A DNA stretch of 64,000 nt from Candidatus Woesearchaeota archaeon (GCA_019322805.1 JAHWIC010000002.1:2938-66937); one strand, 5' to 3'; positions 4,085 through 50,050 are shown, numbered from the stretch's first letter. Made by a program: numbers and translations. The notes: a model not told the origin generated them from the sequence alone.

Positions 4085-4122
4085 CCTAAATCTAAAAATC
4101 CCTTATAAAAGAGGTTGATACT

Positions 4123-26387: not shown

Positions 26388-26566
26388 AAAAAATCCACCC
26401 ACTCACGGCAGCCGTCGCCACTACGTGGCTCGCTCGCCAGCCAGCGAAATGTGAGCGAGTTCGCGAGCTCACTCGCAGGTCGCTGGCGCGTCCCCAGGAT
26501 TTGCAAAGTGAGGCTTGCTCGCTTTGCTCGCAAGCCATTCGCCGGCGCCGTGGATGGATTTTTTCT
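26388..26566. other. GC-rich (~65% GC) highly structured ~180-nt island with 15-nt imperfect terminal inverted repeats; candidate structured ncRNA or MITE
   Basis: Termini aaaaaatccacccac / gtggatggatttttt. Internal stems include cgccagc/gctggcg, gtgagc/gctcac and ggcttgc/gcaagcc. Contains ccaggatttgcaaagt, which resembles the 3' ends of this genome's tRNA T-loop introns. It starts 7 nt after the stop of the minus-strand aminopeptidase gene. ORF 26339..26533 is probably spurious. Confidence 0.4.
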
Positions 26567-32303: not shown

Positions 32304-32406
32304 GGGCTTGTGATCTAGTGGCTATGATGTCGCCCTTACAAGGCGAATATCCCCGGTTCGAGTTGTTTGAGGTTTTACCTTTAACATGAAATTCCGGGCA
32401 GGCCCA
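32304..32406 (+). tRNA. tRNA-Val (anticodon TAC) with a ~30-nt non-canonical intron in the T-loop
   Basis: Acceptor GGGCTTG/CAGGCCC. Anticodon arm TCGCC-CTTACAA-GGCGA. T-stem CCCGG...CCGGG interrupted after TTCGAGT by tgtttgaggttttacctttaacatgaaatt (32364-32393). Discriminator A, followed by TTTT. Confidence 0.7.
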
Positions 32407-32427
32407 TTTTTTTGTTGCTAGCCATAA

Positions 32428-32487
32428 ATTGGCTTCGCCAATTTAATTAAGAAAGCCATAAATCGACTTTGTCGATTTAATTTCACT
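32428..32487 (+). repeat. Tandem pair of ~29-nt hairpin units upstream of tRNA-Gly
   Basis: agccataaat-[aattggc ttc gccaatt]-taatt followed by agccataaat-[cgac ttt gtcg]-atttaatt. Each unit has an ATAAAT TATA-like motif plus a perfect hairpin. The second unit is positioned as the tRNA-Gly promoter. Confidence 0.5.
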
Positions 32488-32559
32488 GCGGTAGTAGTAT
32501 AGTGGTTAGTATACGGCGTTGCCAACGCTGTGACCTGGGTTCAAATCCCAGCTACCGCA
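32488..32559 (+). tRNA. tRNA-Gly (anticodon GCC), intron-less
   Basis: Acceptor GCGGTAG/CTACCGC. Anticodon arm CGGCG-TTGCCAA-CGCTG. T-arm CTGGG-TTCAAAT-CCCAG. Discriminator A. Confidence 0.85.
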
Positions 32560-32659
32560 TTTCTTATTGTCTTGTGGGCTTGACGAACGGTGAAATTAAA
32601 CGCGAAGCGTTTATGGCATTATCCGTGAGGAAACCCACGAAGGTGCCAGTCTGACTTCT

Positions 32660-32744: not shown

Positions 32745-32872
32745 GAGTCCGTAGCTCAGTCTGGTTTAGAGCGCTGGTCTTATATGACTACGCTTTAATC
32801 AATCTAAGAGAGCCAGCGGTCTGGGGTTCAAATAGTAATGCTCAGCATTGCTTGGATGTCCCCGCGGACTCA
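32745..32872 (+). tRNA. tRNA-Ile (anticodon TAT) with two introns (anticodon loop 37/38 ~26 nt, and T-loop ~26 nt)
   Basis: Acceptor GAGTCCG/CGGACTC. D-arm GCTC..GAGC. Anticodon stem CTGGT/GCCAG with loop CTTATA|tgactacgctttaatcaatctaagag|A. T-arm TGGGG-TTCAAAT|agtaatgctcagcattgcttggatgt|CCCC-G. Discriminator A. Confidence 0.6.
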
Positions 32873-32906: not shown

Positions 32907-33051
32907 GCCCCTGTGGTGTAGTCCGGCCAATCATTCAGCCTTTTCGTGTTGGCAATCGTCCGACTCGGTGCGATTCCATCGAAAACAGGCTGGGACCTGG
33001 GTTCGAACGCCGTTAAGCGAAGCTTATGGCTTGAAAGTCCCGGCGGGGGCA
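32907..33051 (+). tRNA. tRNA-Glu (anticodon TTC) with two introns (anticodon loop ~40 nt, T-loop ~30 nt)
   Basis: Acceptor GCCCCTG/CGGGGGC. Anticodon stem CAGCC/GGCTG with loop TTTTCG|40-nt intron|A. T-arm CTGGG-TTCGAAC|gccgttaagcgaagcttatggcttgaaagt|CCCGG. Discriminator A. Confidence 0.65.
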
Positions 33052-33649: not shown

Positions 33650-35288
<1,639 letters not shown>

Positions 35289-35327
35289 TTATTTCAATTT
35301 TTCATGATCAGAAACTGGGCCCGTAGC

Positions 35328-35450
35328 TCAGCAGTAGAGCGCCGCCCTTGCATTATACGTTTATAGTATATAGTATACGAGCGAGGCGGAGGCCTCGGGT
35401 TCGAATATTCCAGGACCATTGGACTGGATTTGAAAGTCCCGACGGGTCCA
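35328..35450 (+). tRNA. tRNA-Ala (anticodon TGC) in the 16S-23S spacer, with two introns (anticodon loop and T-loop)
   Basis: Acceptor GGGCCCG/CGGGTCC. Anticodon stem CCGCC/GGCGG with loop CTTGCA|tatacgtttatagtatatagtatacgagcg|A. T-arm TCGGG-TTCGAAT|attccaggaccattggactggatttgaaagt|CCCGA. Discriminator A. Confidence 0.75.
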
Positions 35451-35571
35451 TCTTTTACCTTAGGTGCAGAATAATCAGATAATGCTTATTTTTCATTTGA
35501 ACCAATCAATGATTGTATTATCTTGGTTGGAAGGTTGAAATCATTTTAATGAAACCATGCATAGTTGGTAG

Positions 35572-38500
35572 TAATGCTATTAGGTGGATGACTAGGCTCA
35601 AACGCTGATGAAGGATGTGACAAGCTACATTATGCTCTGGCGAGTCGCACGTAGACTTTGAACCGGAGATTCCTGAATGAGACTTCTCATTAGATCCGTA
35701 AGGATCGGGAACGCAGGGAATTGAAACGTCTTAGTACCTGCAGGAAAAGAAATCAATTGAGATGCTGTTAGTAAAGGCGATTGAAGACAGCTCAAGGCAA
35801 ACTGAATCCTTTGTTGAAAGGCAAAGGAGATGTGGTGTTATAAGACCGCCTACATAGGTTTTCTCTTGGGAACCTGAAGTCCCTTGGAAAAAGGTACCTA
35901 AGAATGTGACAGTCATGTAAGGGTAACTGAGAAAGACCTTGGCGGTATCTTGAGTACCATTTGCTGGATACCAAATGGGAATTTGGGAGGCATCAACTTC
36001 CAACCTTAAATACGTTTTGAGTCCGATAGAGCATTAGTACAGTGATGGAAAGTTGAAAAGAACCCTTGATAGGAAGTAAAAAGAACCTGAAACCTAATAG
36101 CTATAGTAAGGTACTGCTCTTCGGAGCTGTACCGTACGTTTCGAATAACGTGCCAGGGAGTTTATCTAAGTGGCAAGGGTAATCCCTAAAGGAGTACCCG
36201 CAGGGAAACCAAAATGCTCGCAGCCTGCAAGGAGCGAGGTATGAAAGTGCCTAGAGTCACTTGGATATGACCCGAAGCCAGGCGATCTAACCCTGAGTAA
36301 GGTGAAACAAGGGTAAAACCTTGTGGAGGCCTGAAGAGGTTCTACGAGCAAGTGTTCTTCTAACTTGGGGCTAGGGGTGAAAAGCCAATCGAGCCTGGCG
36401 ATAGCTGGTTCCTACCAAAATTGGCCGTAGTCAAGTCCTAAGCGAGATAGCTAGAATGGTAGAGCTACGGATTGGGGATTTAGGTCTCGAAAGGGATCGG
36501 TCTCCTGTCCAACTCCGAATATGCTAGCGTTGTAGACCTTAGGAGACGGGGAGCCTGGGGTAAGCTTGGCTTCCAAGAGGGGAACAACCCAGACTACAGT
36601 TAAGGTCCCTAAATACTGACTAAGTGTTAAAGGGTGAAGAGTGTTCAAGGTCATAGACAGCGAGGAGGTTGGCTCAGAAGCAGCCACCCTTTAAAAAGTG
36701 CGTATACATTACGACGCTTTTAAGCGGCGTATGGCTCGCAAGACAGCTTACTTGTCAAGATCTTGGGCCTCTAAAATGGACGGGGCTAAGTCAGTTACCG
36801 ATACTGTAGACCACTCAAAAGAGTGCGTGGTAGGTAGGCGTTTTGGAAGGGCAGAAGCATTCTTGAAAAGGAATGTGAACCTTTCAAAAATGAGAATCCT
36901 GGCGGTAGTAGGATCTAAGCAGAGTGAGAATCTCTGCCACTGAAAGGGCAAGGGTTCCTTGACAATGTCAATCAGTCAAGGGTTAGTTGAACCTAACGGA
37001 GTCCATAAATTGGATACTCTGGAAAGAGCAAAAGGTTAATATTCCTTTACTATCCGAGTATACGTGGCAACACAAGTCTGGTTTCCGACTCTTTGGGATA
37101 GACCGACATAAACCTTCGTTTGTGTTAATAAGAATAAATCAGGGGAGTATCATAACGATGAGAACCTGATTAAATCTTAGAATAGTGGGTCGTATGATTC
37201 ATTCGGTTGATTCCTGGAGACCATGAAAAGGGAATCAGAAAAAATCTTGGATAATTATACCCAGAACCAGCACTGGTGCCCCTAGGTGAGAAACCTAAAG
37301 TGTGAAGGCATAACTTGATTGAGGGAATTCGGCAAATTAGTCCCGTACCTTCGGTATAAGGGATCCCTGCGATTGTGGCTTTTAGTTGCGATTGCAGGGC
37401 GTAGTGACTAAGGAGGTCCGACTGTTTAACAAAAACTTAACTGACTGCTAGCCTGCAAAGGTGTGTATAGTCAGTGAAGCCTGCCCAGTGCCAGTACTTT
37501 AAACTTGGTTCCAACTGAGCTAAGAGCTGGTATACGGCGGGAGTAACTATAACTCTCTTAAGGTAGCGTAATACCTTGTCGTTTGAATGACGACTTGCAT
37601 GAATGGCGCAACGAGATCTCCACTGTCCCCAATCAGGAGCCTCCGAACTCCCTTTCCTGGTGCAAAAGCCAGGGATCTCCAGTGGGAAGCGAAGACCCCG
37701 TGAAACTTTACTGTAGCTTATCATTGCGACGTGAGTTTTGTTGTATAGCGTAAGTGGGAGCTGCTAAGCTTAAGTCGTCAGGCTTAAGATAGGCGACGAT
37801 GTAACACCACTTTTCAGAATTTGCGTTGCTAACTTCGAAAGAAAGACATTGATAGGTGGACAGTTTGGCTGGGGTGGCACCCCGCTGAAATTGTATCAGC
37901 GGGGCCCAATGGTTGGCTCAATCCGGTCAGAAATCGGATGTCGAGTGCAAAGGCAAAAGCCAGCCTGACTGGATTCTTACTAAGATGGAATCCAGAAACG
38001 AAAGTTAGGCTTAGCGAACCTCTATGTCCTCCTTGATGGGGGCTAGAGATGACCAAAAAGTTACTCCGGGGATAACAGAGTTGTCGCGCCCGAGAGTTCA
38101 TAGAAAGCAGCGAGTCCTTCGCTGCTCTCAGGACAAATCGACGGCGCGGCTTGCTACATCGATGTCGGCTCTTCCTATCCTGGATGTGCAGAAGTATAAT
38201 TTGCTGGGCAAATTATGCTCAGTAACTTGTTACTGTATGCATCCAAGGGTGGGGGTGTTCACCCATTAAAAGGGATCGTGAGCTGGGTTCAGAACGCTGT
38301 GAGGCAGTTTGTTTGATATCTACTGGAGATGTTGATGTCTGAAGGGAAGGATCCTCTAGTACGAGAGGAACGAGGATTCGGCGCCTCTGGTTTACCGGTT
38401 ATCCGAAAGGGTAAGCTGGGCAGCTACGCGCCAAGGGATAAGAGCTGAAAGCATCTAAGCTCGAAACCCGCCTTGAAAATAGACATCTTAGGACACGAGC

Positions 38501-38605
38501 AAAATACTCGTTTAATGGAACTGATGTGTAAGTATAAAGCTTCGGCGATATATTCAGCATGCAGTTCCCAACAGTCCATTTTACCAACTATGTATGGTTT
38601 TTCAT
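35572..38605 (+). rRNA. 23S rRNA (ends approximate)
   Basis: 5' region GGTGGATGACTAGGCTCAAACGCTGATGAAGGATGTG. Sarcin-ricin, peptidyl-transferase and other conserved blocks are present (GATGTCGGCTCTTCCTATCCTGG; GGGATCGTGAGCTGGGTTCAGAACG; GCTGAAAGCATCTAAGC near 38440). Small AT-rich perfect-hairpin insertions occur, e.g. at 38190-38245. No 5S gene in the operon. Confidence 0.85.
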
Positions 38606-42566: not shown

Positions 42567-42914
42567 ATGAAGGAGAAAATACTGCTTAGAACAGCACTAA
42601 TTGTTTCTATTGTGGGCGTTACACTCCTATTTTTTATTTCTGACTTCAGTGAACTTGGAGAAACAGGCATAGAAGAGATAACAATTGACGACTTAGATAA
42701 GAATGTTAAAGTGATTGGAGCTGTTACCAAGGTTATTGATACTGATAAGGTTCTCATAATGGATATTGCCCAACAAGAAGAGTTCAAGGTTGTTGTGTTC
42801 AAGGATAAGAACATCAGCTTGAAAAGAGGTGATTATATTGAGGTTTTAGGGACAGTTGAGGAGTATGAAGGTGAGCTTGAGATTATTGGCGACAGAATAA
42901 GGCTGATTGATTAA
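42567..42914 (+). CDS. Membrane-anchored OB-fold domain protein (hypothetical)
   Basis: N-terminal TM/signal segment then OB-fold-like [12 protein letters not shown]...[17 protein letters not shown]. Confidence 0.4.
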
Positions 42915-45851: not shown

Positions 45852-46034
45852 ATGGGATTCTTAACAAAAATTAAGATAGCTAAGTTAAAGAGGAGATTAG
45901 CTAGTGTAACTGCGTTATTACAAACAGCTAAAGTCCAAAAGGATGTAAAGTTGGCAAAAAAATTAACTGCTTTGCAGGCTGTTCTAACTGATAAGATAAG
46001 TGCTTTAGAGCAAAGTAAGAAAAAGGTTGGATAA
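45852..46034 (+). CDS. Small coiled-coil hypothetical protein (60 aa; start uncertain)
   Basis: MGFLTKIKIAKLKRRLASVTALLQTAKVQKDVKLAKKLTALQAVLTDKISALEQSKKKVG. The TATA-like aaatttatatatc at 45810-45822 is positioned for a leaderless start at 45852. Alternative start at 45825. Confidence 0.3.
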   Translation: MGFLTKIKIAKLKRRLASVTALLQTAKVQKDVKLAKKLTALQAVLTDKISALEQSKKKVG

Positions 46035-46066
46035 GCTTTTTAAATAAAACCCTAATTCTTGAGCCT

Positions 46067-46324
46067 ATGGAAGGAATAATATCCAATTTCAGACGCGGAA
46101 GACACAGGCAAGTAACAAACCAGATGATTATTAAGCCTGCCGGTGTTGACAAGAAAGAAGCAGCTGCAAAACTGGTCGGCAAAGCAGTCAGCTGGAAGAG
46201 CCCTGCTGGTAAAGAGATAAAAGGGAAAGTAGCTAAGGAGCACGGCAGGAATGGTTCTGTAAGGGTCCTTTTTGAGACAGGAATGCCTGGGCAGTCAATA
46301 GGTACTAAAGTTAGTATTCAATAA
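46067..46324 (+). CDS. rpl35ae: 50S ribosomal protein L35Ae
   Basis: RRGRHRQVTNQMIIKPAGVDKKEAAAKLVGKAVSWKSPAGKEIKGKVAKEHGRNGSVRVLFETGMPGQSIGTKV matches the L35Ae consensus. Confidence 0.8.
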   Translation: MEGIISNFRRGRHRQVTNQMIIKPAGVDKKEAAAKLVGKAVSWKSPAGKEIKGKVAKEHGRNGSVRVLFETGMPGQSIGTKVSIQ

Positions 46325-46384
46325 ATCATTAATTCTTATCACTAGGTGCACAAAAACATTTAGAATTAGTTGTGAACTTTGATT

Positions 46385-46657
46385 TTAACTATCATGTTAA
46401 ATTATCACTAATAACAATTAAATCCGAATTCCTTTCACAACCACAATAAAGGTTATAGTAAGCGAAATTATATAATCAATAGTTTCGCTTACTAAATAGT
46501 AAACGCAATCTTTCATAAAATAGTTGCGTTTACTAAATTTTCGTCTGCTTATGGTTCTTAAGAAACAGGAGCGGGATGATTTTTGCCTTAAGTAAGGAAT
46601 AAAGCAAAAATCGGATTTATTATTTTTCTAATGATATTTTTTATTGATAAGAAAAAA
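46385..46657 (-). repeat. Structured intergenic repeat, copy 4 (minus orientation). It starts immediately 3' of the minus-strand tRNA-iMet and carries two extra inserted hairpins.
   Basis: Read on the minus strand: ttatcaataaaaaatatcattagaaaaataataaatccgatttttgctttattccttacttaaggcaaaaatc... then two perfect 12-bp hairpins (tagtaaacgcaa/ttgcgtttacta and tagtaagcgaaa/tttcgcttacta) replace hairpin 2. Ends ...gttgtgaaaggaattcggatttaattgttatta as in copies 1-2. Confidence 0.7.
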
Positions 46658-46797
46658 TAGCGGGGAATGGACTCTCAAATCCTGAGGGATTTGTGGTCTC
46701 CCTCTGGGATATTTGAACCATCGACCTGAGGGTCTCTCTGCTTAAGCATATGAGCCCTCCGGGCACTCCTGACTGCCCTACCCCGCTGTAAGGTCTG
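46658..46797 (-). tRNA. Initiator tRNA-Met (anticodon CAT, A1:U72 pair) with two introns (anticodon loop ~15 nt; T-loop ~40 nt)
   Basis: Minus-strand read: AGCGGGG-TA-GGGC-AGTCAGGAGT-GCCC-G-GAGGG-CTCATA|tgcttaagcagagag|A-CCCTC-AGGTC-GATGG-TTCAAAT|atcccagagggagaccacaaatccctcaggatttgagagt|CCATT-CCCCGCT-A. The A1:U72 pair is an archaeal initiator hallmark. It overlaps the spurious ORF 46641..47162. Confidence 0.7.
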
Positions 46798-46881
46798 AGA
46801 AATAATCGGCTATTTATAAAAGTTTGGAATAAAAAAGAAAACGAAAGATAAATAAATACATTCAATAAATCAGAGATAGAG

Positions 46882-47187
46882 GTGTTTACTATGACAAATG
46901 GAATAAAATTATTAATACTTGATATATTAAAGCCGATAGAGCCCCCTATATTAGAATATGCCCAGGCTATAGCTGCTATAGATAAATCGTATTCTGTGAG
47001 TCTCAGGGTTGAAGAGATCGATGAGAAGACCGAAACAGTTGAGGTGATTGTTATCGGTGATAACATCAACTTCAAAAAAATAGAAGAGAAGATTAACAAG
47101 CTTGGCGGAACAGTGCATAGCTTAGACGAGGTCTCTGAGGGAAAACAGATGATTAACTCCAAGGATTTTTCTGGGATGCGTAAATGA
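46882..47187 (+). CDS. DUF211-family protein (COG1888)
   Basis: IKLLILDILKPIEPPILEYAQAIAAIDKSYSVSLRVEEIDEKTETVEVIVIGDNINFKKIEEKINKLGGTVHSLDEV matches the DUF211 consensus (LVLDVLKPH.P...E.A..L.....V..V........D..TE....TIEG..ID...I...IE..GG.IHSIDEV). Confidence 0.6.
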   Translation: MFTMTNGIKLLILDILKPIEPPILEYAQAIAAIDKSYSVSLRVEEIDEKTETVEVIVIGDNINFKKIEEKINKLGGTVHSLDEVSEGKQMINSKDFSGMRK

Positions 47188-47762
47188 TAAACTTTTTTAG
47201 GAAAATATTAGATTATGTGAAATTGGGCATTTCTGACAAGATTGCTAGAAGGTACTTTATTGTGAATGCTTTTGATGGTTCCTTGACTCTTCTTGGTATG
47301 TTGATGGGAGCCTTTATCGTAGGTATTGAAAATTACCATGTTATCTTTGGAGCTGGAATGGGAGCAACTATTGCTATGGGAATCTCTGGTCTTTCTGGGG
47401 CTTACCTCAGCGAGAAAGCTGAAAGGGCAGAAGGAATTAGAGAACTAGAGAAAGCAATGTTAAAGAAGCTGGATAATACTACCCTATCTGAAGCCTCGAA
47501 GGTTGCTCCTATATTCTCTGCTCTTGCACATGGAGGCTCTCCTTTCTTAGCAGGTCTTTTGATAATGGCTCCTTTCTTTTTTGGAGAGCTTTTTTCAGTT
47601 ACCCGGCTGGTTTACATGTCATTAGGGCTTTGTTTTGGAATCCTCTTCCTATTGGGGTTGGTACTGGGAAAGATATCAAAAGAAAACATGTTTCTTTCTG
47701 GCATTAGAGCCTTGGCAGTAGGTATCTTTACAGCCGTGATTCTATATATATTCAAGATATAA
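47184..47762 (+). CDS. VIT1/CCC1-like membrane protein (DUF211-associated)
   Basis: FIVNAFDGSLTLLGMLMGAFIVG resembles the VIT family GANDG..S...LV.G motif. Several TM segments and a coupled start (ATGA-type overlap with the DUF211 gene). Confidence 0.4.
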   Translation: MINFFRKILDYVKLGISDKIARRYFIVNAFDGSLTLLGMLMGAFIVGIENYHVIFGAGMGATIAMGISGLSGAYLSEKAERAEGIRELEKAMLKKLDNTTLSEASKVAPIFSALAHGGSPFLAGLLIMAPFFFGELFSVTRLVYMSLGLCFGILFLLGLVLGKISKENMFLSGIRALAVGIFTAVILYIFKI

Positions 47763-47771
47763 TAAAAGAAA

Positions 47772-47897
47772 ACGCCGCGGGGGAGACTTTCAAAAAGCAT
47801 GCCGAACGCTGCGCGCGGCATGCTGTTTTTGAACTCCCGTGCCCCGAAGGACAGAGGATTAGCAATCCTCCGCAATGGCCGGGCTATGCGACCGCGG
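47772..47897 (-). tRNA. tRNA-Ser (anticodon GCT) with long variable arm and a ~41-nt T-loop intron
   Basis: Minus-strand read: GCCGCGG-TC-GCAT-AGCCCGGCCA-TTGC-G-GAGGA-TTGCTAA-TCCTC-TGTCCTTCGGGGCAC (variable arm hairpin GTCC/GGGC)-GGGAG-TTCAAAA|acagcatgccgcgcgcagcgttcggcatgctttttgaaagt|CTCCC-CCGCGGC-G, then TTTT. Appears as a GC-rich island on the plus strand. ORF 47875..48057 is spurious. Confidence 0.75.
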
Positions 47898-47980
47898 CAT
47901 AGGATTTGTTATTTGTTATTTATATATAAATGTTGTTGATTTCATAATATTTAAATATCAGGATAAAAAGATTAGTACAT

Positions 47981-50050
47981 ATGAAAAAAATAATGTTCTT
48001 AATGTTATTTCTAGTCATGATTCCAATATGCATTTCACAGGATTACTACAGGGCTAAAAACCTCATTATTGAGCTGGATGTAGATTCTGAGTTTCAGATA
48101 ATCCCTAGCTCAGGAGATTATCAGATTAGCTATGTTACTGCAAATCTCTATTTTTTCCCTCGCGATGGATTTAACCAGGATGTGCTTAAATTAACAACTA
48201 CTCCAAAAGCTGAGGAAATTGATGAAAGCATTACATTCAGATGGGACAACCCGCAAGCTGGCAAGCTGGCGTTTAATGTCAATTCCGAGATAATGACTAA
48301 TGATAAAAAGGTTGAGGTAAAAAGCAGGGTAAGGTTTCCTATTACAAGCCTGCCTAATGATGTTTTGCCTTACACTCAGCCGTCTGCAACAATTGACTCT
48401 GATAATATGGATATAATCCTATTGGCTTCAGAGCTTGCTGCTGGAGAGGATGATCTTTATGTTGTTGTGCACAATATTGGCGCATGGGTAAAGAAGAATA
48501 TTGATTATGAGTTAAGCTCGTTAACTACAGGAATAAGCCAGACAGCTTCATGGGTTTTGCTTACAAAAAAGGGAGTGTGTGATGAGATAACAAATCTGTT
48601 CATTGCTATGTTAAGGTCTTTAGGAATACCTGCAAGGTTTATCTCTGGTGTTTCTTACACAGAGCTTATCGAAGGCAACTGGGGCAATCATGGCTGGGCA
48701 GAGGTCTACTTTCCAGGCTATGGCTGGATTCCATTTGATGTTACCTATGGCGAGCTTGGTTATTTAGATCCAACACATATAAACCTGCATGCAGCTATAG
48801 ATGCAGAGGAGTCCTCAACAAAATATCAATGGTATGGCCGCAATGTTGATGTAGTCACCAAACTCCTTGAAACAAAAGTTAGAGTAATGCAGATACGCGG
48901 GGAGGCAGAGCCCAAGATAAGGCTAAACACTATTGCTATAAAAAGTGAGGTTGGTTTTGGCTCATACAACCTTATTGAAACCATTGTAGAAAATCTTGAT
49001 GACAGCTATTACTCTACAGAGCTGCATATATCAAAGCCTGTTGAAGTTAGTGTGTTAGGCGATGAAGAAAGGTTTGTACTTCTAAGGCCGAATGAGCGCA
49101 AAAAGGTTTATTGGGATATCAAAATACCCAGCAGCCTTAGAAAAACAAGCGTCTATACTTTCCCCATTGCTGTCTGGTCTTCAAAAAACTTCAGTTCTTA
49201 CACCAGCTTTAAGTCTTCTTATTTAGATAAAGTTTATTCAGCAAAAGAGATAGAAGATATACTCAACCAGCGGCAGGTAGAGGAATCCAAGGTTTATTCA
49301 AGGAATGTCGGCCTTAGTTGCAGCATTAGTAAGGATGAACTCTACCTTAATGAATACACCTTAGTTGCCTGTAATCTAAAGAATGTAGGAAACGTGCTGC
49401 TCAGAAACATTAGGCTGTGCGGTGGTGATTCCTGTGAAATATTTGACCTTGGAATCTCACAGATGGTCTATAAGGAATACAAAATCTATCCTTCAGAAAT
49501 AGGCTCATTCGAATTTGTTGTAAGGATTGACAGTCCTGATGTCTCAAAAGCAGAGTACATTAAGTATACTGTTCTTGACAAGCCTGTTGTTTCAATAGAA
49601 AACCTGAATTATCCAGATAGTGTTTCATACGGAGATGCATTTTCCGTAGAATTCTCATTGGATAAGGGCTCTTTATCTACGCCGAAGGAGGTTTTTGTAG
49701 AGCTGTACCAGGGCAGTGTACCAAAGGGCTGGCGCATAGATAAGCTTAGCGCAGAGCAGTCATTCAAAGTAAATTTTGACAGCAAAGGCCTAGGATTAAA
49801 TGAGAATGATTTTGAGATAAGAGTCAGGTATAAGGATAATCTAGGCAGGGAGTACCTGGAAACAAAATCATTTAAGGTAATCCTTACAAATGTTCCAGCG
49901 TCGGAAATTCCATTTGTTGCATTAAGATCCATTATAATGAATCTTGGATATATGGATATAAAAAAGATTGTTTATATTTCAGGCGCAGTTATTATTGCAT
50001 TTGTAATTGTTATAATGTACACTGTGAGGGCTGTTGAGAAGAAGAGATAA
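47981..50050 (+). CDS. Secreted/surface-anchored transglutaminase-like cysteine protease domain protein
   Basis: Signal peptide MKKIMFLMLFLVMIPICIS. Transglutaminase core GVCDEITNLFIAMLRSLGIPARFISGV...GNHGWAEVYFPGYGWIPFDVT (Cys-His-Asp). C-terminal TM anchor IVYISGAVIIAFVIVIMY. Confidence 0.7.
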   Translation: MKKIMFLMLFLVMIPICISQDYYRAKNLIIELDVDSEFQIIPSSGDYQISYVTANLYFFPRDGFNQDVLKLTTTPKAEEIDESITFRWDNPQAGKLAFNVNSEIMTNDKKVEVKSRVRFPITSLPNDVLPYTQPSATIDSDNMDIILLASELAAGEDDLYVVVHNIGAWVKKNIDYELSSLTTGISQTASWVLLTKKGVCDEITNLFIAMLRSLGIPARFISGVSYTELIEGNWGNHGWAEVYFPGYGWIPFDVTYGELGYLDPTHINLHAAIDAEESSTKYQWYGRNVDVVTKLLETKVRVMQIRGEAEPKIRLNTIAIKSEVGFGSYNLIETIVENLDDSYYSTELHISKPVEVSVLGDEERFVLLRPNERKKVYWDIKIPSSLRKTSVYTFPIAVWSSKNFSSYTSFKSSYLDKVYSAKEIEDILNQRQVEESKVYSRNVGLSCSISKDELYLNEYTLVACNLKNVGNVLLRNIRLCGGDSCEIFDLGISQMVYKEYKIYPSEIGSFEFVVRIDSPDVSKAEYIKYTVLDKPVVSIENLNYPDSVSYGDAFSVEFSLDKGSLSTPKEVFVELYQGSVPKGWRIDKLSAEQSFKVNFDSKGLGLNENDFEIRVRYKDNLGREYLETKSFKVILTNVPASEIPFVALRSIIMNLGYMDIKKIVYISGAVIIAFVIVIMYTVRAVEKKR

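Follow-up and report, generated by a model that had tools for sequence, protein, structure and literature searches.

A GC-rich block on the minus strand of the window, by which we mean the whole 64,000-nucleotide stretch of Candidatus Woesearchaeota (DPANN) DNA that was analyzed, is very probably a functional tRNA-Ser(GCU) gene whose T-loop is interrupted at 59/60, a non-canonical site, by a BHB-type intron that is removed by protein enzymes; we put the probability of this reading at about 90%. As judged from the sequence comparisons presented below, the gene, its exact exon junction, the conserved insertion site, and the BHB-type geometry are established. A preliminary description of this DNA had proposed a tRNA-Ser(GCT) with a T-loop intron at this place. 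That reading is supported by excision of the insert, by orthologous genes, and by compensatory base changes, and it is refined in one respect, in that the splice motif is a relaxed BHB and not a strict one. The same description had located the gene correctly on the minus strand in a GC-rich island, but its span of 47772-47897 was one base off, the exact positions being 47898..47773.

Structure of the tRNA-Ser(GCU) gene

The features of the gene and its flanks, with coordinates and strand, are as follows:

47773..47898, minus strand: complete tRNA-Ser(GCU) gene, from the sequence, ARAGORN after excision, and covariation among 12 distinct orthologues
47828..47898, minus strand: 5′ exon, 71 nt, comprising the acceptor 5′ strand, D-arm, anticodon arm, variable arm, T-stem 5′ strand, and T-loop 54-59 (TTCAAA)
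47861..47863, minus strand: anticodon GCT (GCU), which decodes AGY serine codons
47787..47827, minus strand: 41-nt insert, the predicted BHB-type intron at T-loop 59/60, AACAGCATGCCGCGCGCAGCGTTCGGCATGCTTTTTGAAAG
47797..47823, minus strand: inner hairpin of the intron (helix h′ of the BHB), GCATGCCG, 11-nt loop, CGGCATGC, from folds
47789..47792, minus strand: intron nt −6 to −3 (TGAA), pairing with T54-A57 (TTCA, 47833..47830) as the central 4-bp BHB helix
47788..47787 and 47786, minus strand: 3-nt 3′ bulge, made up of the intron-final AG and T60, from the fold
47773..47786, minus strand: 3′ exon, 14 nt, comprising T60, the T-stem 3′ strand CTCCC, the acceptor 3′ strand CCGCGGC, and the discriminator G
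47923..47930, minus strand: TATA-box-like TTTATATA, 25-32 nt upstream of the mature 5′ end, a putative archaeal promoter
47764..47772, minus strand: TTTTCTTTT, directly after the discriminator, a putative oligo-T terminator

The gene is 126 nt long unspliced and 85 nt when mature; the discriminator G73 is at 47773, and CCA is not encoded. The acceptor stem is a perfect 7 bp (GCCGCGG/CCGCGGC). The D-stem has 3 bp (G10-C25, C11-G24, A12-U23) followed by a U13.U22 mismatch, with GG in the D-loop. The anticodon stem GAGGA/UCCUC carries the loop UUGCUAA, and the 15-nt variable region forms a hairpin with a 4-bp stem and a UUCG loop. The class II parts listed in the preliminary description (7-bp acceptor, 3-bp D-stem, anticodon GCT, 15-nt variable arm, discriminator G) were all read on the minus strand, and the T-run that it placed after the discriminator lies directly 3′ of G73. 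In the unspliced gene the T-stem GGGAG/CUCCC encloses 48 nt, not 7.

ARAGORN, which had been named as a check, did not call the unspliced gene, but when the 41 nt from 47827 to 47787 (47827..47787) were excised in silico it called an 85-nt tRNA-Ser(gct) with the 7-nt T-loop TTCAAAT. The claim of a 41-nt T-loop intron is thus borne out by the excision, and the junctions of the orthologues agree with it. The predicted spliced junction in the RNA is ...GGGAGUUCAAA/UCUCCC... (here and below, a slash within a splice site marks the cut), and the T-loop becomes UUCAAAU. The spliced form has every feature that we used to define a class II cloverleaf, namely 7 bp in the acceptor stem, G18G19 in the D-arm, an anticodon stem of 5 bp whose 7-nt loop has U33, the anticodon, and a purine at 37, and a T-stem of 5 bp with the 7-nt T-loop UUCRANY. 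It also has the long variable arm of the Ser type and the discriminator G73, which are the serine identity elements.

Detection of the gene and chance controls

The tRNA-Ser gene was called neither by ARAGORN, run on the window, nor by Rfam at gathering thresholds. At E<=5, an Rfam search of the slice 46000-48500 produced only chance miRNA and snoRNA matches and no partial tRNA match. The earlier statement that standard finders would miss the gene therefore holds for ARAGORN and Rfam, the two that were checked. Together these programs detected only one of the seven tRNA genes of the window, Gly(GCC) at 32487-32560; the Rfam matches in the window were the archaeal SSU rRNA (33650-35286), the LSU rRNA (35561-38591), and one tRNA.

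Because the GC content of the window is 38%, structural RNAs show up as GC-rich islands. In one control, all single excisions of 8-110 nt were made in 15 GC islands, and for 10 of the 15 no excision in that size range gave an ARAGORN-valid tRNA. In an exhaustive control, approximately 5.5 million single excisions of 8-100 nt were made across the whole non-rRNA window. Each real tRNA locus was supported by 47-82 excisions in the exhaustive scan, and all of these loci were GC-rich intergenic islands. False calls came from four weak loci, with 1-11 excisions each, besides artefacts from the mutilated Gly(GCC) gene at 32392-32560. The tRNA-Ser finding is more than chance.

Several candidates from these scans were rejected. 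A candidate tRNA-Ile(GAT) near 4113 (11 excisions) lies within the enolase CDS, would be 93-95 nt long, and fails in a slightly altered sequence context. The singletons at 42852, 54101, and 57246 were considered noise, as were the calls from the mutilated genuine tRNA-Gly. A separate, targeted scan gave apparent introns of 82-122 nt in the orthologous loci L003, L004, L006, L009, L010, L018, L020, L021, L023, and L024; these were artefacts, caused by tRNA genes in tandem or by duplication of the 3′ end.

Orthologous genes share the insertion site but not the insert

We searched with a structured pattern consisting of the Ser D-loop, the GCU anticodon loop, the T-loop, an insert, and a BHB-type 3′ end. 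The pattern had one match in the window, with none expected by chance, and it matched the GTDB species-representative MAGs L003 and L004. A 23-nt exon segment used as a query retrieved 23 metagenome contigs, and the GTDB and metagenome scans gave a total of 25 loci with the orthologous gene. Six unrelated inserts of 36-74 nt were found at exactly 59/60 among the window and its orthologues:

window: 41 nt
L003, L004, L006, L009, and L018: 44 nt
L010 and L021: 74 nt
L017: 46 nt
L022: 36 nt
L027: 40 nt

At least ten orthologues were intron-less and had the T-loop TTCAAAT (L007, L008, L012-L015, L019, L023, L024, and L026); two further intron-less loci had the variant T-loops TTCGAAT (L020) and TTCGAGT (the distant L025). 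The spliced L017 sequence is identical at 85/85 positions to the intron-less genes of L023 and L026.

The mature tRNA-Ser sequences of the window and L003 are identical at 76/85 positions. Six of the nine differences constitute three compensatory double changes, one in the acceptor stem (5:68) and two in the T-stem (50:64 and 52:62). When 24 pairs were examined in 12 distinct mature sequences, all 288 cells contained standard pairs, and in six pairs both partners had changed, three in the acceptor and three in the T-stem, where they bridge the insert. The observed percentage paired, the numbers of double-changed pairs and of double-changed cells, and the covariation score were not reached in any of 500 shuffles, whereas 148 of the 500 equaled the count of further pair types. 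Slid controls gave at most two double-changed pairs and 46-58% pairing.

No pair of insert cores was more similar than shuffles in a search for the similarity expected from intron transposition, and no C/D-box guide RNAs were found in the introns. The covariation, taken together with the unrelated insert cores, indicates that the exons evolve as one tRNA and that the insert is free apart from its position and ends. As far as the aligned loci can tell, only structure and position are conserved among the inserts; their sequence varies, as does their presence or absence among relatives.

The predicted splice motif is a relaxed BHB

Archaeal splicing endonucleases recognize a helix-bulge-helix-bulge-helix and cut after the second base of each 3-nt bulge, the cuts being 4 bp apart (Marck & Grosjean 2003, as cited in PMC4090602 and PMC8450103). 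We computed the motif for ten T-loop inserts, five from the window and five from orthologous Ser genes; an eleventh, that of the window tRNA-Val, was examined by eye. In all eleven (Val by eye), intron positions −6 to −3 pair at 4/4 positions with T54-R57 to form the central helix. The 3-nt 3′ bulge beside the T-stem is NG/U in ten inserts and AU/U in Val (by eye). A58, A59, and the first intron base sit opposite, and the intron hairpin follows. Folds of the ten computed inserts that were constrained to a strict BHB lay 0.6-3.8 kcal/mol above the MFE; a strict hBHBh′ with 8 contiguous h′ pairs was found in the L003 Ser intron and the window Ile intron.

For the window Ser gene, the UUCA/UGAA helix (4/4) and the AG/U bulge adjoining the 5-bp T-stem are present in the MFE structure. 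In the same structure A58, A59, and the first intron bases pair with a UUUUU run, putting the 5′ cut site in an A-U helix. An uninterrupted pairing of A57 through the second intron base with UUUUU is possible, and a 2-nt CA bulge then remains, 8 bp from the 3′ bulge. The strict BHB lies 3.8 kcal/mol above the MFE, the worst value of the ten inserts, and because the strict form is less stable by this amount we count the motif as a relaxed BHB.

Owing to the redundancy of the A-run, cuts 56/57 to 58/59 also remove 41 nt, and a true intron spliced in that register would leave the mature T-loop UUCAAGU instead of UUCAAAU. The sequence TTCAAAAA...GAAAGT permits this arithmetic, the distant orthologue L025 does have G59 (TTCGAGT), and the 5′ site of the window Ser gene shows no clean bulge in the MFE. 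We nevertheless consider this register improbable, because the close intron-less orthologues have TTCAAAT, the BHB rule (cut after the second bulge base, 4 bp apart) puts the 3′ cut at AG/T, and the eleven inserts (Val by eye) and the canonical introns of the same genes all keep one register.

With splicing at 59/60, the T-arm introns have the geometry of the canonical 37/38 hBHBh′ intron, with a 5-bp outer stem, loop positions 1-4 paired with intron −6 to −3, and cuts after loop position 6 and before loop position 7. In the canonical 37/38 introns of four window genes, loop positions 32-35 pair with intron −6 to −3, and the bulges are 36,37/i1 and i−2,i−1/38. We infer that 59/60 reproduces the geometry of 37/38 in the T-arm: in each case a 5-bp stem bears a 7-nt loop, and the site falls between loop positions 6 and 7. 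The 59/60 intron differs from the 37/38 intron in being located in the T-arm, so that T54-Psi55-C56 is sequestered in the precursor, and in being missed by tools that allow introns in the anticodon loop only. The eleven inserts are natural T-arm BHB substrates ranging from strict to relaxed and would allow the substrate range of DPANN splicing endonucleases to be assayed.

Other tRNA genes of the window

The seven tRNA genes of the window, with their introns, are as follows:

32304-32406, plus strand: Val(UAC), no 37/38 intron, 59/60 intron 32363-32392
32487-32560, plus strand: Gly(GCC), without introns
32745-32872, plus strand: Ile(UAU), 37/38 intron 32785-32810, 59/60 intron 32833-32858
32907-33051, plus strand: Glu(UUC), 37/38 intron 32947-32986, 59/60 intron 33008-33037
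35317-35450, plus strand: Ala(UGC) in the 16S-23S spacer, 37/38 intron 35353-35383, 59/60 intron 35406-35436
46787..46658, minus strand: initiator Met(CAU), 37/38 intron 46748..46734, 59/60 intron 46711..46672
47898..47773, minus strand: Ser(GCU), no 37/38 intron, 59/60 intron 47827..47787

Introns at 59/60 are present in six of the seven genes, and four genes (Ile, Glu, Ala, and initiator Met) carry both a 37/38 and a 59/60 intron, for a total of ten introns or approximately 1.4 per gene. The five hidden genes other than Ser (Val, Ile, Glu, Ala, and initiator Met) have 59/60 introns of 26-40 nt, and all five are missed by ARAGORN and Rfam. The Val-Gly-Ile-Glu cluster lies just upstream of the rRNA operon. 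Identity elements were recognized in tRNA-Ala (G3.U70) and in the initiator (A1.U72 and three G-C pairs at the bottom of the anticodon stem). Because the intron-bearing genes include indispensable tRNAs, the initiator and the Ala of the rRNA operon, the cell must splice the 59/60 motif.

These genes also bear on the question of whether the Ser locus is a dead tRNA gene, that is, a pseudogene broken by a small insertion such as the remnant of a mobile element and yielding no functional tRNA. Such a gene could account for the lack of a call by ARAGORN and Rfam, for a strict BHB not being the best fold, and for the T5 run in the insert. It is very unlikely, however, in view of the purifying selection on both exons with compensatory changes across the insert, the use of one insertion site in six lineages by unrelated inserts that keep the 4-bp helix and 3-nt bulge, and the intact promoter and terminator signals. 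Moreover, the feature is common to 6/7 tRNA genes of the window, including the initiator and the rRNA-operon tRNA-Ala.

Most archaea read AUA with an agmatidine-modified CAU anticodon, and tRNA-Ile(UAU) is unusual; it also occurs in Nanoarchaeum. The same tRNA has been reported for ARMAN lineages without TiaS (PMC3239211). Its presence in the window suggests the same AUA-decoding strategy as in the ARMAN lineages.

Predicted expression and processing

For a functional tRNA-Ser(GCU) gene, we infer transcription, EndA cleavage, RtcB ligation, and the type of enzyme by analogy with known systems. Transcription of the tRNA-Ser would start from a TATA promoter of its own and end at the oligo-T tract. 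TATA-like boxes (TTTATATA, TTTAAATA, or TTTATAAA), which are putative signals, lie approximately 25-32 nt upstream of the mature 5′ ends of the Val, Ile, initiator Met, and Ser genes. In the precursor, T-loop positions 54-57 (UUCA) would pair with intron −6 to −3 (UGAA) to form the 4-bp central BHB helix, with the T-stem as the outer helix and the GC-rich intron hairpin as the inner helix. EndA would then cut after A59 (AA/A) and before U60 (AG/U, 3-nt bulge), and an RtcB-type ligase would join the exons, restoring the T-loop UUCAAAU; the intron would probably be freed as a circle. A T5 run, which stems from complementarity to the A-run of the 5′ splice site, is present on the coding strand inside the Ser intron (47793-47797, minus strand) and, because oligo-T tracts can stop archaeal RNA polymerase, might end some transcripts prematurely.

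No EndA or RtcB gene was found in the approximately 71 kb of annotated contig. For this reason the EndA type was taken from the literature on other DPANN archaea, in which EndAs with an L3 loop are associated with more disrupted tRNA genes (Kaneta et al., PMC5829648). The canonical introns in four neighboring tRNA genes imply the presence of splicing machinery in the genome.

Genomic context

The tRNA-Ser gene is flanked by a VIT1-family gene (PF01988; 47184-47762, plus strand) and a transglutaminase-like gene (47981-50050, plus strand), and the end of VIT1 at 47762 is 11 nt from the tRNA block. The hairpin that the preliminary description had seen inside the insert is present, with the arms GCATGCCG...CGGCATGC, and does look like a terminator; being palindromic and flanked by A5 and T5, it is followed by a T-run on both strands. 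The least probable explanation of the block is that it is the plus-strand terminator of the convergent VIT1 gene (GC hairpin plus T-run) with an incidental tRNA-like fold, a proposal that leaves the cloverleaf, the covariation, and the orthologues with other or no inserts unexplained and could describe a secondary effect at most. Archaeal termination relies on oligo-T and not on hairpins. A consensus terminator scan of 47600-48100, which looked for a short GC-rich stem with a 3-8 nt loop, followed at once by a T-run and located downstream of a gene on the same strand, did not call the insert hairpin because its loop is 11 nt; the sole call was at 47884-47902 (plus strand), inside the acceptor/D-arm. 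The comparative data rule out a terminator as the sole explanation of the hairpin.

Mechanical ORFs were present at 46641-47162 (minus strand, 173 aa), 47612-47875 (minus strand, 87 aa), and 47875-48057 (plus strand, 60 aa). The last of these had been pointed out earlier as spurious; it exists, overlapping the 5′ end of the tRNA as well as the beginning of the genuine transglutaminase-like gene (47981..50050). Each of the three ORFs overlaps the initiator Met or Ser tRNA gene or real genes on the opposite strand and is absent from the gene calls of the source contig, ENA ERZ27275891 k141_1792434, and the 173-aa ORF has no Pfam match. All three are probably spurious.

A homologue of the transglutaminase-like gene adjoins tRNA-Ser both in the window (47773-47898) and in L003 (4330-4458), in opposite relative orientation; the opposite orientation of the tRNA relative to the shared neighbor indicates a local inversion of the tRNA gene alone. 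Synteny through the adjacent VIT1 gene was uninformative, its nearest homologues being only ~48% identical and from mixed taxa. The FtsY encoded in the window is 100% identical to a protein listed at NCBI for "Candidatus Woesearchaeota archaeon", and its closest relatives are from Woesearchaeota/Nanoarchaeota MAGs. L003 (CAZFJK010000009.1, "uncultured Methanosarcinales archaeon") is approximately 90% identical in DNA to L004 (QMQQ01000006.1, Guaymas Candidatus Woesearchaeota archaeon B54_G15), and the tRNA is identical; the Methanosarcinales label of L003 probably reflects an error of binning or taxonomy.

Downstream of intron-less tRNA-Ser(GCU) alleles lies a conserved segment of approximately 110-160 nt, GAGCGTACGAC...GTCGTACTTGATCTCG..TTCCAATT, found in L023 (2701-2835) and L026 (minus strand) and also in L008 and L014. 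The 13 nt of the tRNA 3′ end recur downstream in L023 and L026, at distances of 122 and 172 nt, respectively. From their sequence, these copies resemble an att-type duplication such as an integrated or miniature element would leave; no such duplication was found among the intron-containing alleles of the sample.

Relationship to known tRNA introns

Position 59/60 is among the listed non-canonical positions of tRNA introns (PMC4090602). In ARMAN-2 (Candidatus Micrarchaeum acidiphilum), the intron of pre-tRNA-Cys(GCA) lies at 59/60, is 13 nt long, and has a relaxed BHB, which the epsilon2 EndA cleaves in vitro (Fujishima et al. 2011, PMC3239211). The window tRNA-Ser resembles this tRNA-Cys in its 59/60 site, its relaxed BHB, its membership in the DPANN superphylum, and its being missed by standard finders, and the ARMAN-2 genome likewise has tRNA-Ile(UAU). 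It differs in being a class II Ser-GCU tRNA, in the length of its intron (41 vs. 13 nt), in having a long GC hairpin as h′, and in its lineage (Woesearchaeota/Nanobdellota); the window gene is known here from its sequence, whereas ARMAN-2 tRNA-Cys has been cleaved in vitro.

In Thermoproteales and other Crenarchaeota, as in the window, BHB-dependent, protein-spliced introns occur outside 37/38, including at 59/60, two or more introns per gene are possible, and intron density is high. Non-canonical and multiple crenarchaeal tRNA introns were reportedly described by Marck & Grosjean in 2003, Sugahara et al. in 2008, and Fujishima et al. in 2010. Such introns have been reviewed (PMC4090602), and the mean for Thermoproteales is 0.84 introns per tRNA gene (PMC8450103). 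The introns of Thermoproteales are scattered over the whole tRNA and have related sequences, which points to transposition; in contrast, the six non-canonical introns of the window are all at one site and have dissimilar cores. The split tRNA genes of Nanoarchaeum equitans belong to the same broad lineage (Nanoarchaeota/Nanobdellota in the GTDB sense), depend on a BHB and EndA, and also cause tRNAs to appear missing, but the window Ser gene is contiguous and cis-spliced, its exons lying 41 nt apart on one transcript.

The 59/60 intron type is thus already known from ARMAN-2 and Crenarchaeota, and the window Ser gene adds a new case. Of more interest is that nearly all tRNA genes of the window share the single site 59/60, with an intron density comparable to that of the most intron-rich Crenarchaeota. 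A broader proposal, that most or all tRNA genes in this lineage carry a BHB intron at 59/60, with more than one intron per gene, rapid turnover, and a position-specific invasion that explains the incomplete tRNA sets of Nanobdellota/DPANN, is possible but doubtful. If it is true, 59/60 introns might persist because they disrupt a stretch of the T-arm that serves integrating elements as an attachment site, an idea that derives from the att-like 3′-end duplications in two intron-less alleles and in no intron-containing allele of the sample.

Incomplete predicted tRNA sets in DPANN have been ascribed to "unidentified disrupted tRNA genes" (PMC5829648). With tRNAscan-SE, full coverage of the 20 amino acids by tRNAs was obtained in only 96/208 complete Nanobdellota genomes, and the causes weighed were order-level partial-isoacceptor loss, detection failure, and split (trans-spliced) tRNAs (2026 preprint 10.64898/2026.05.13.725050). 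The models with which tRNAscan-SE 2.0 looks for non-canonical introns were trained on Crenarchaeota/Euryarchaeota and Thaumarchaeota (PMC8450103). Because six of the seven tRNA genes of the window are hidden only by a T-loop intron, our results suggest that the apparent loss of tRNAs in such organisms may often be an annotation artefact. They offer practical guidance for annotating DPANN genomes and bear on the "missing tRNA" problem.

Additional observations

A GC-rich island at 26393-26562 (170-190 nt, 59% GC) separates two minus-strand genes and is bordered by an A-run and a T-run. It has a long closed multibranch fold with a z of about −5 on either strand. It had no Rfam match at E<=10 and gave no tRNA by single excision, and from its predicted fold we regard it as a candidate for an unknown structured RNA. 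The SSU rRNA match at 33650-35286 is 1637 nt long vs. 1478 positions in the model, which implies approximately 160 nt of insertions or expansion segments; a BHB intron among them is conceivable. A gene for seryl-tRNA synthetase (Seryl_tRNA_N + tRNA-synt_2b; L030, 2137-3408) is present on the same contig, approximately 4.8-6.0 kb past the 3′ end of the window and approximately 21 kb from tRNA-Ser.
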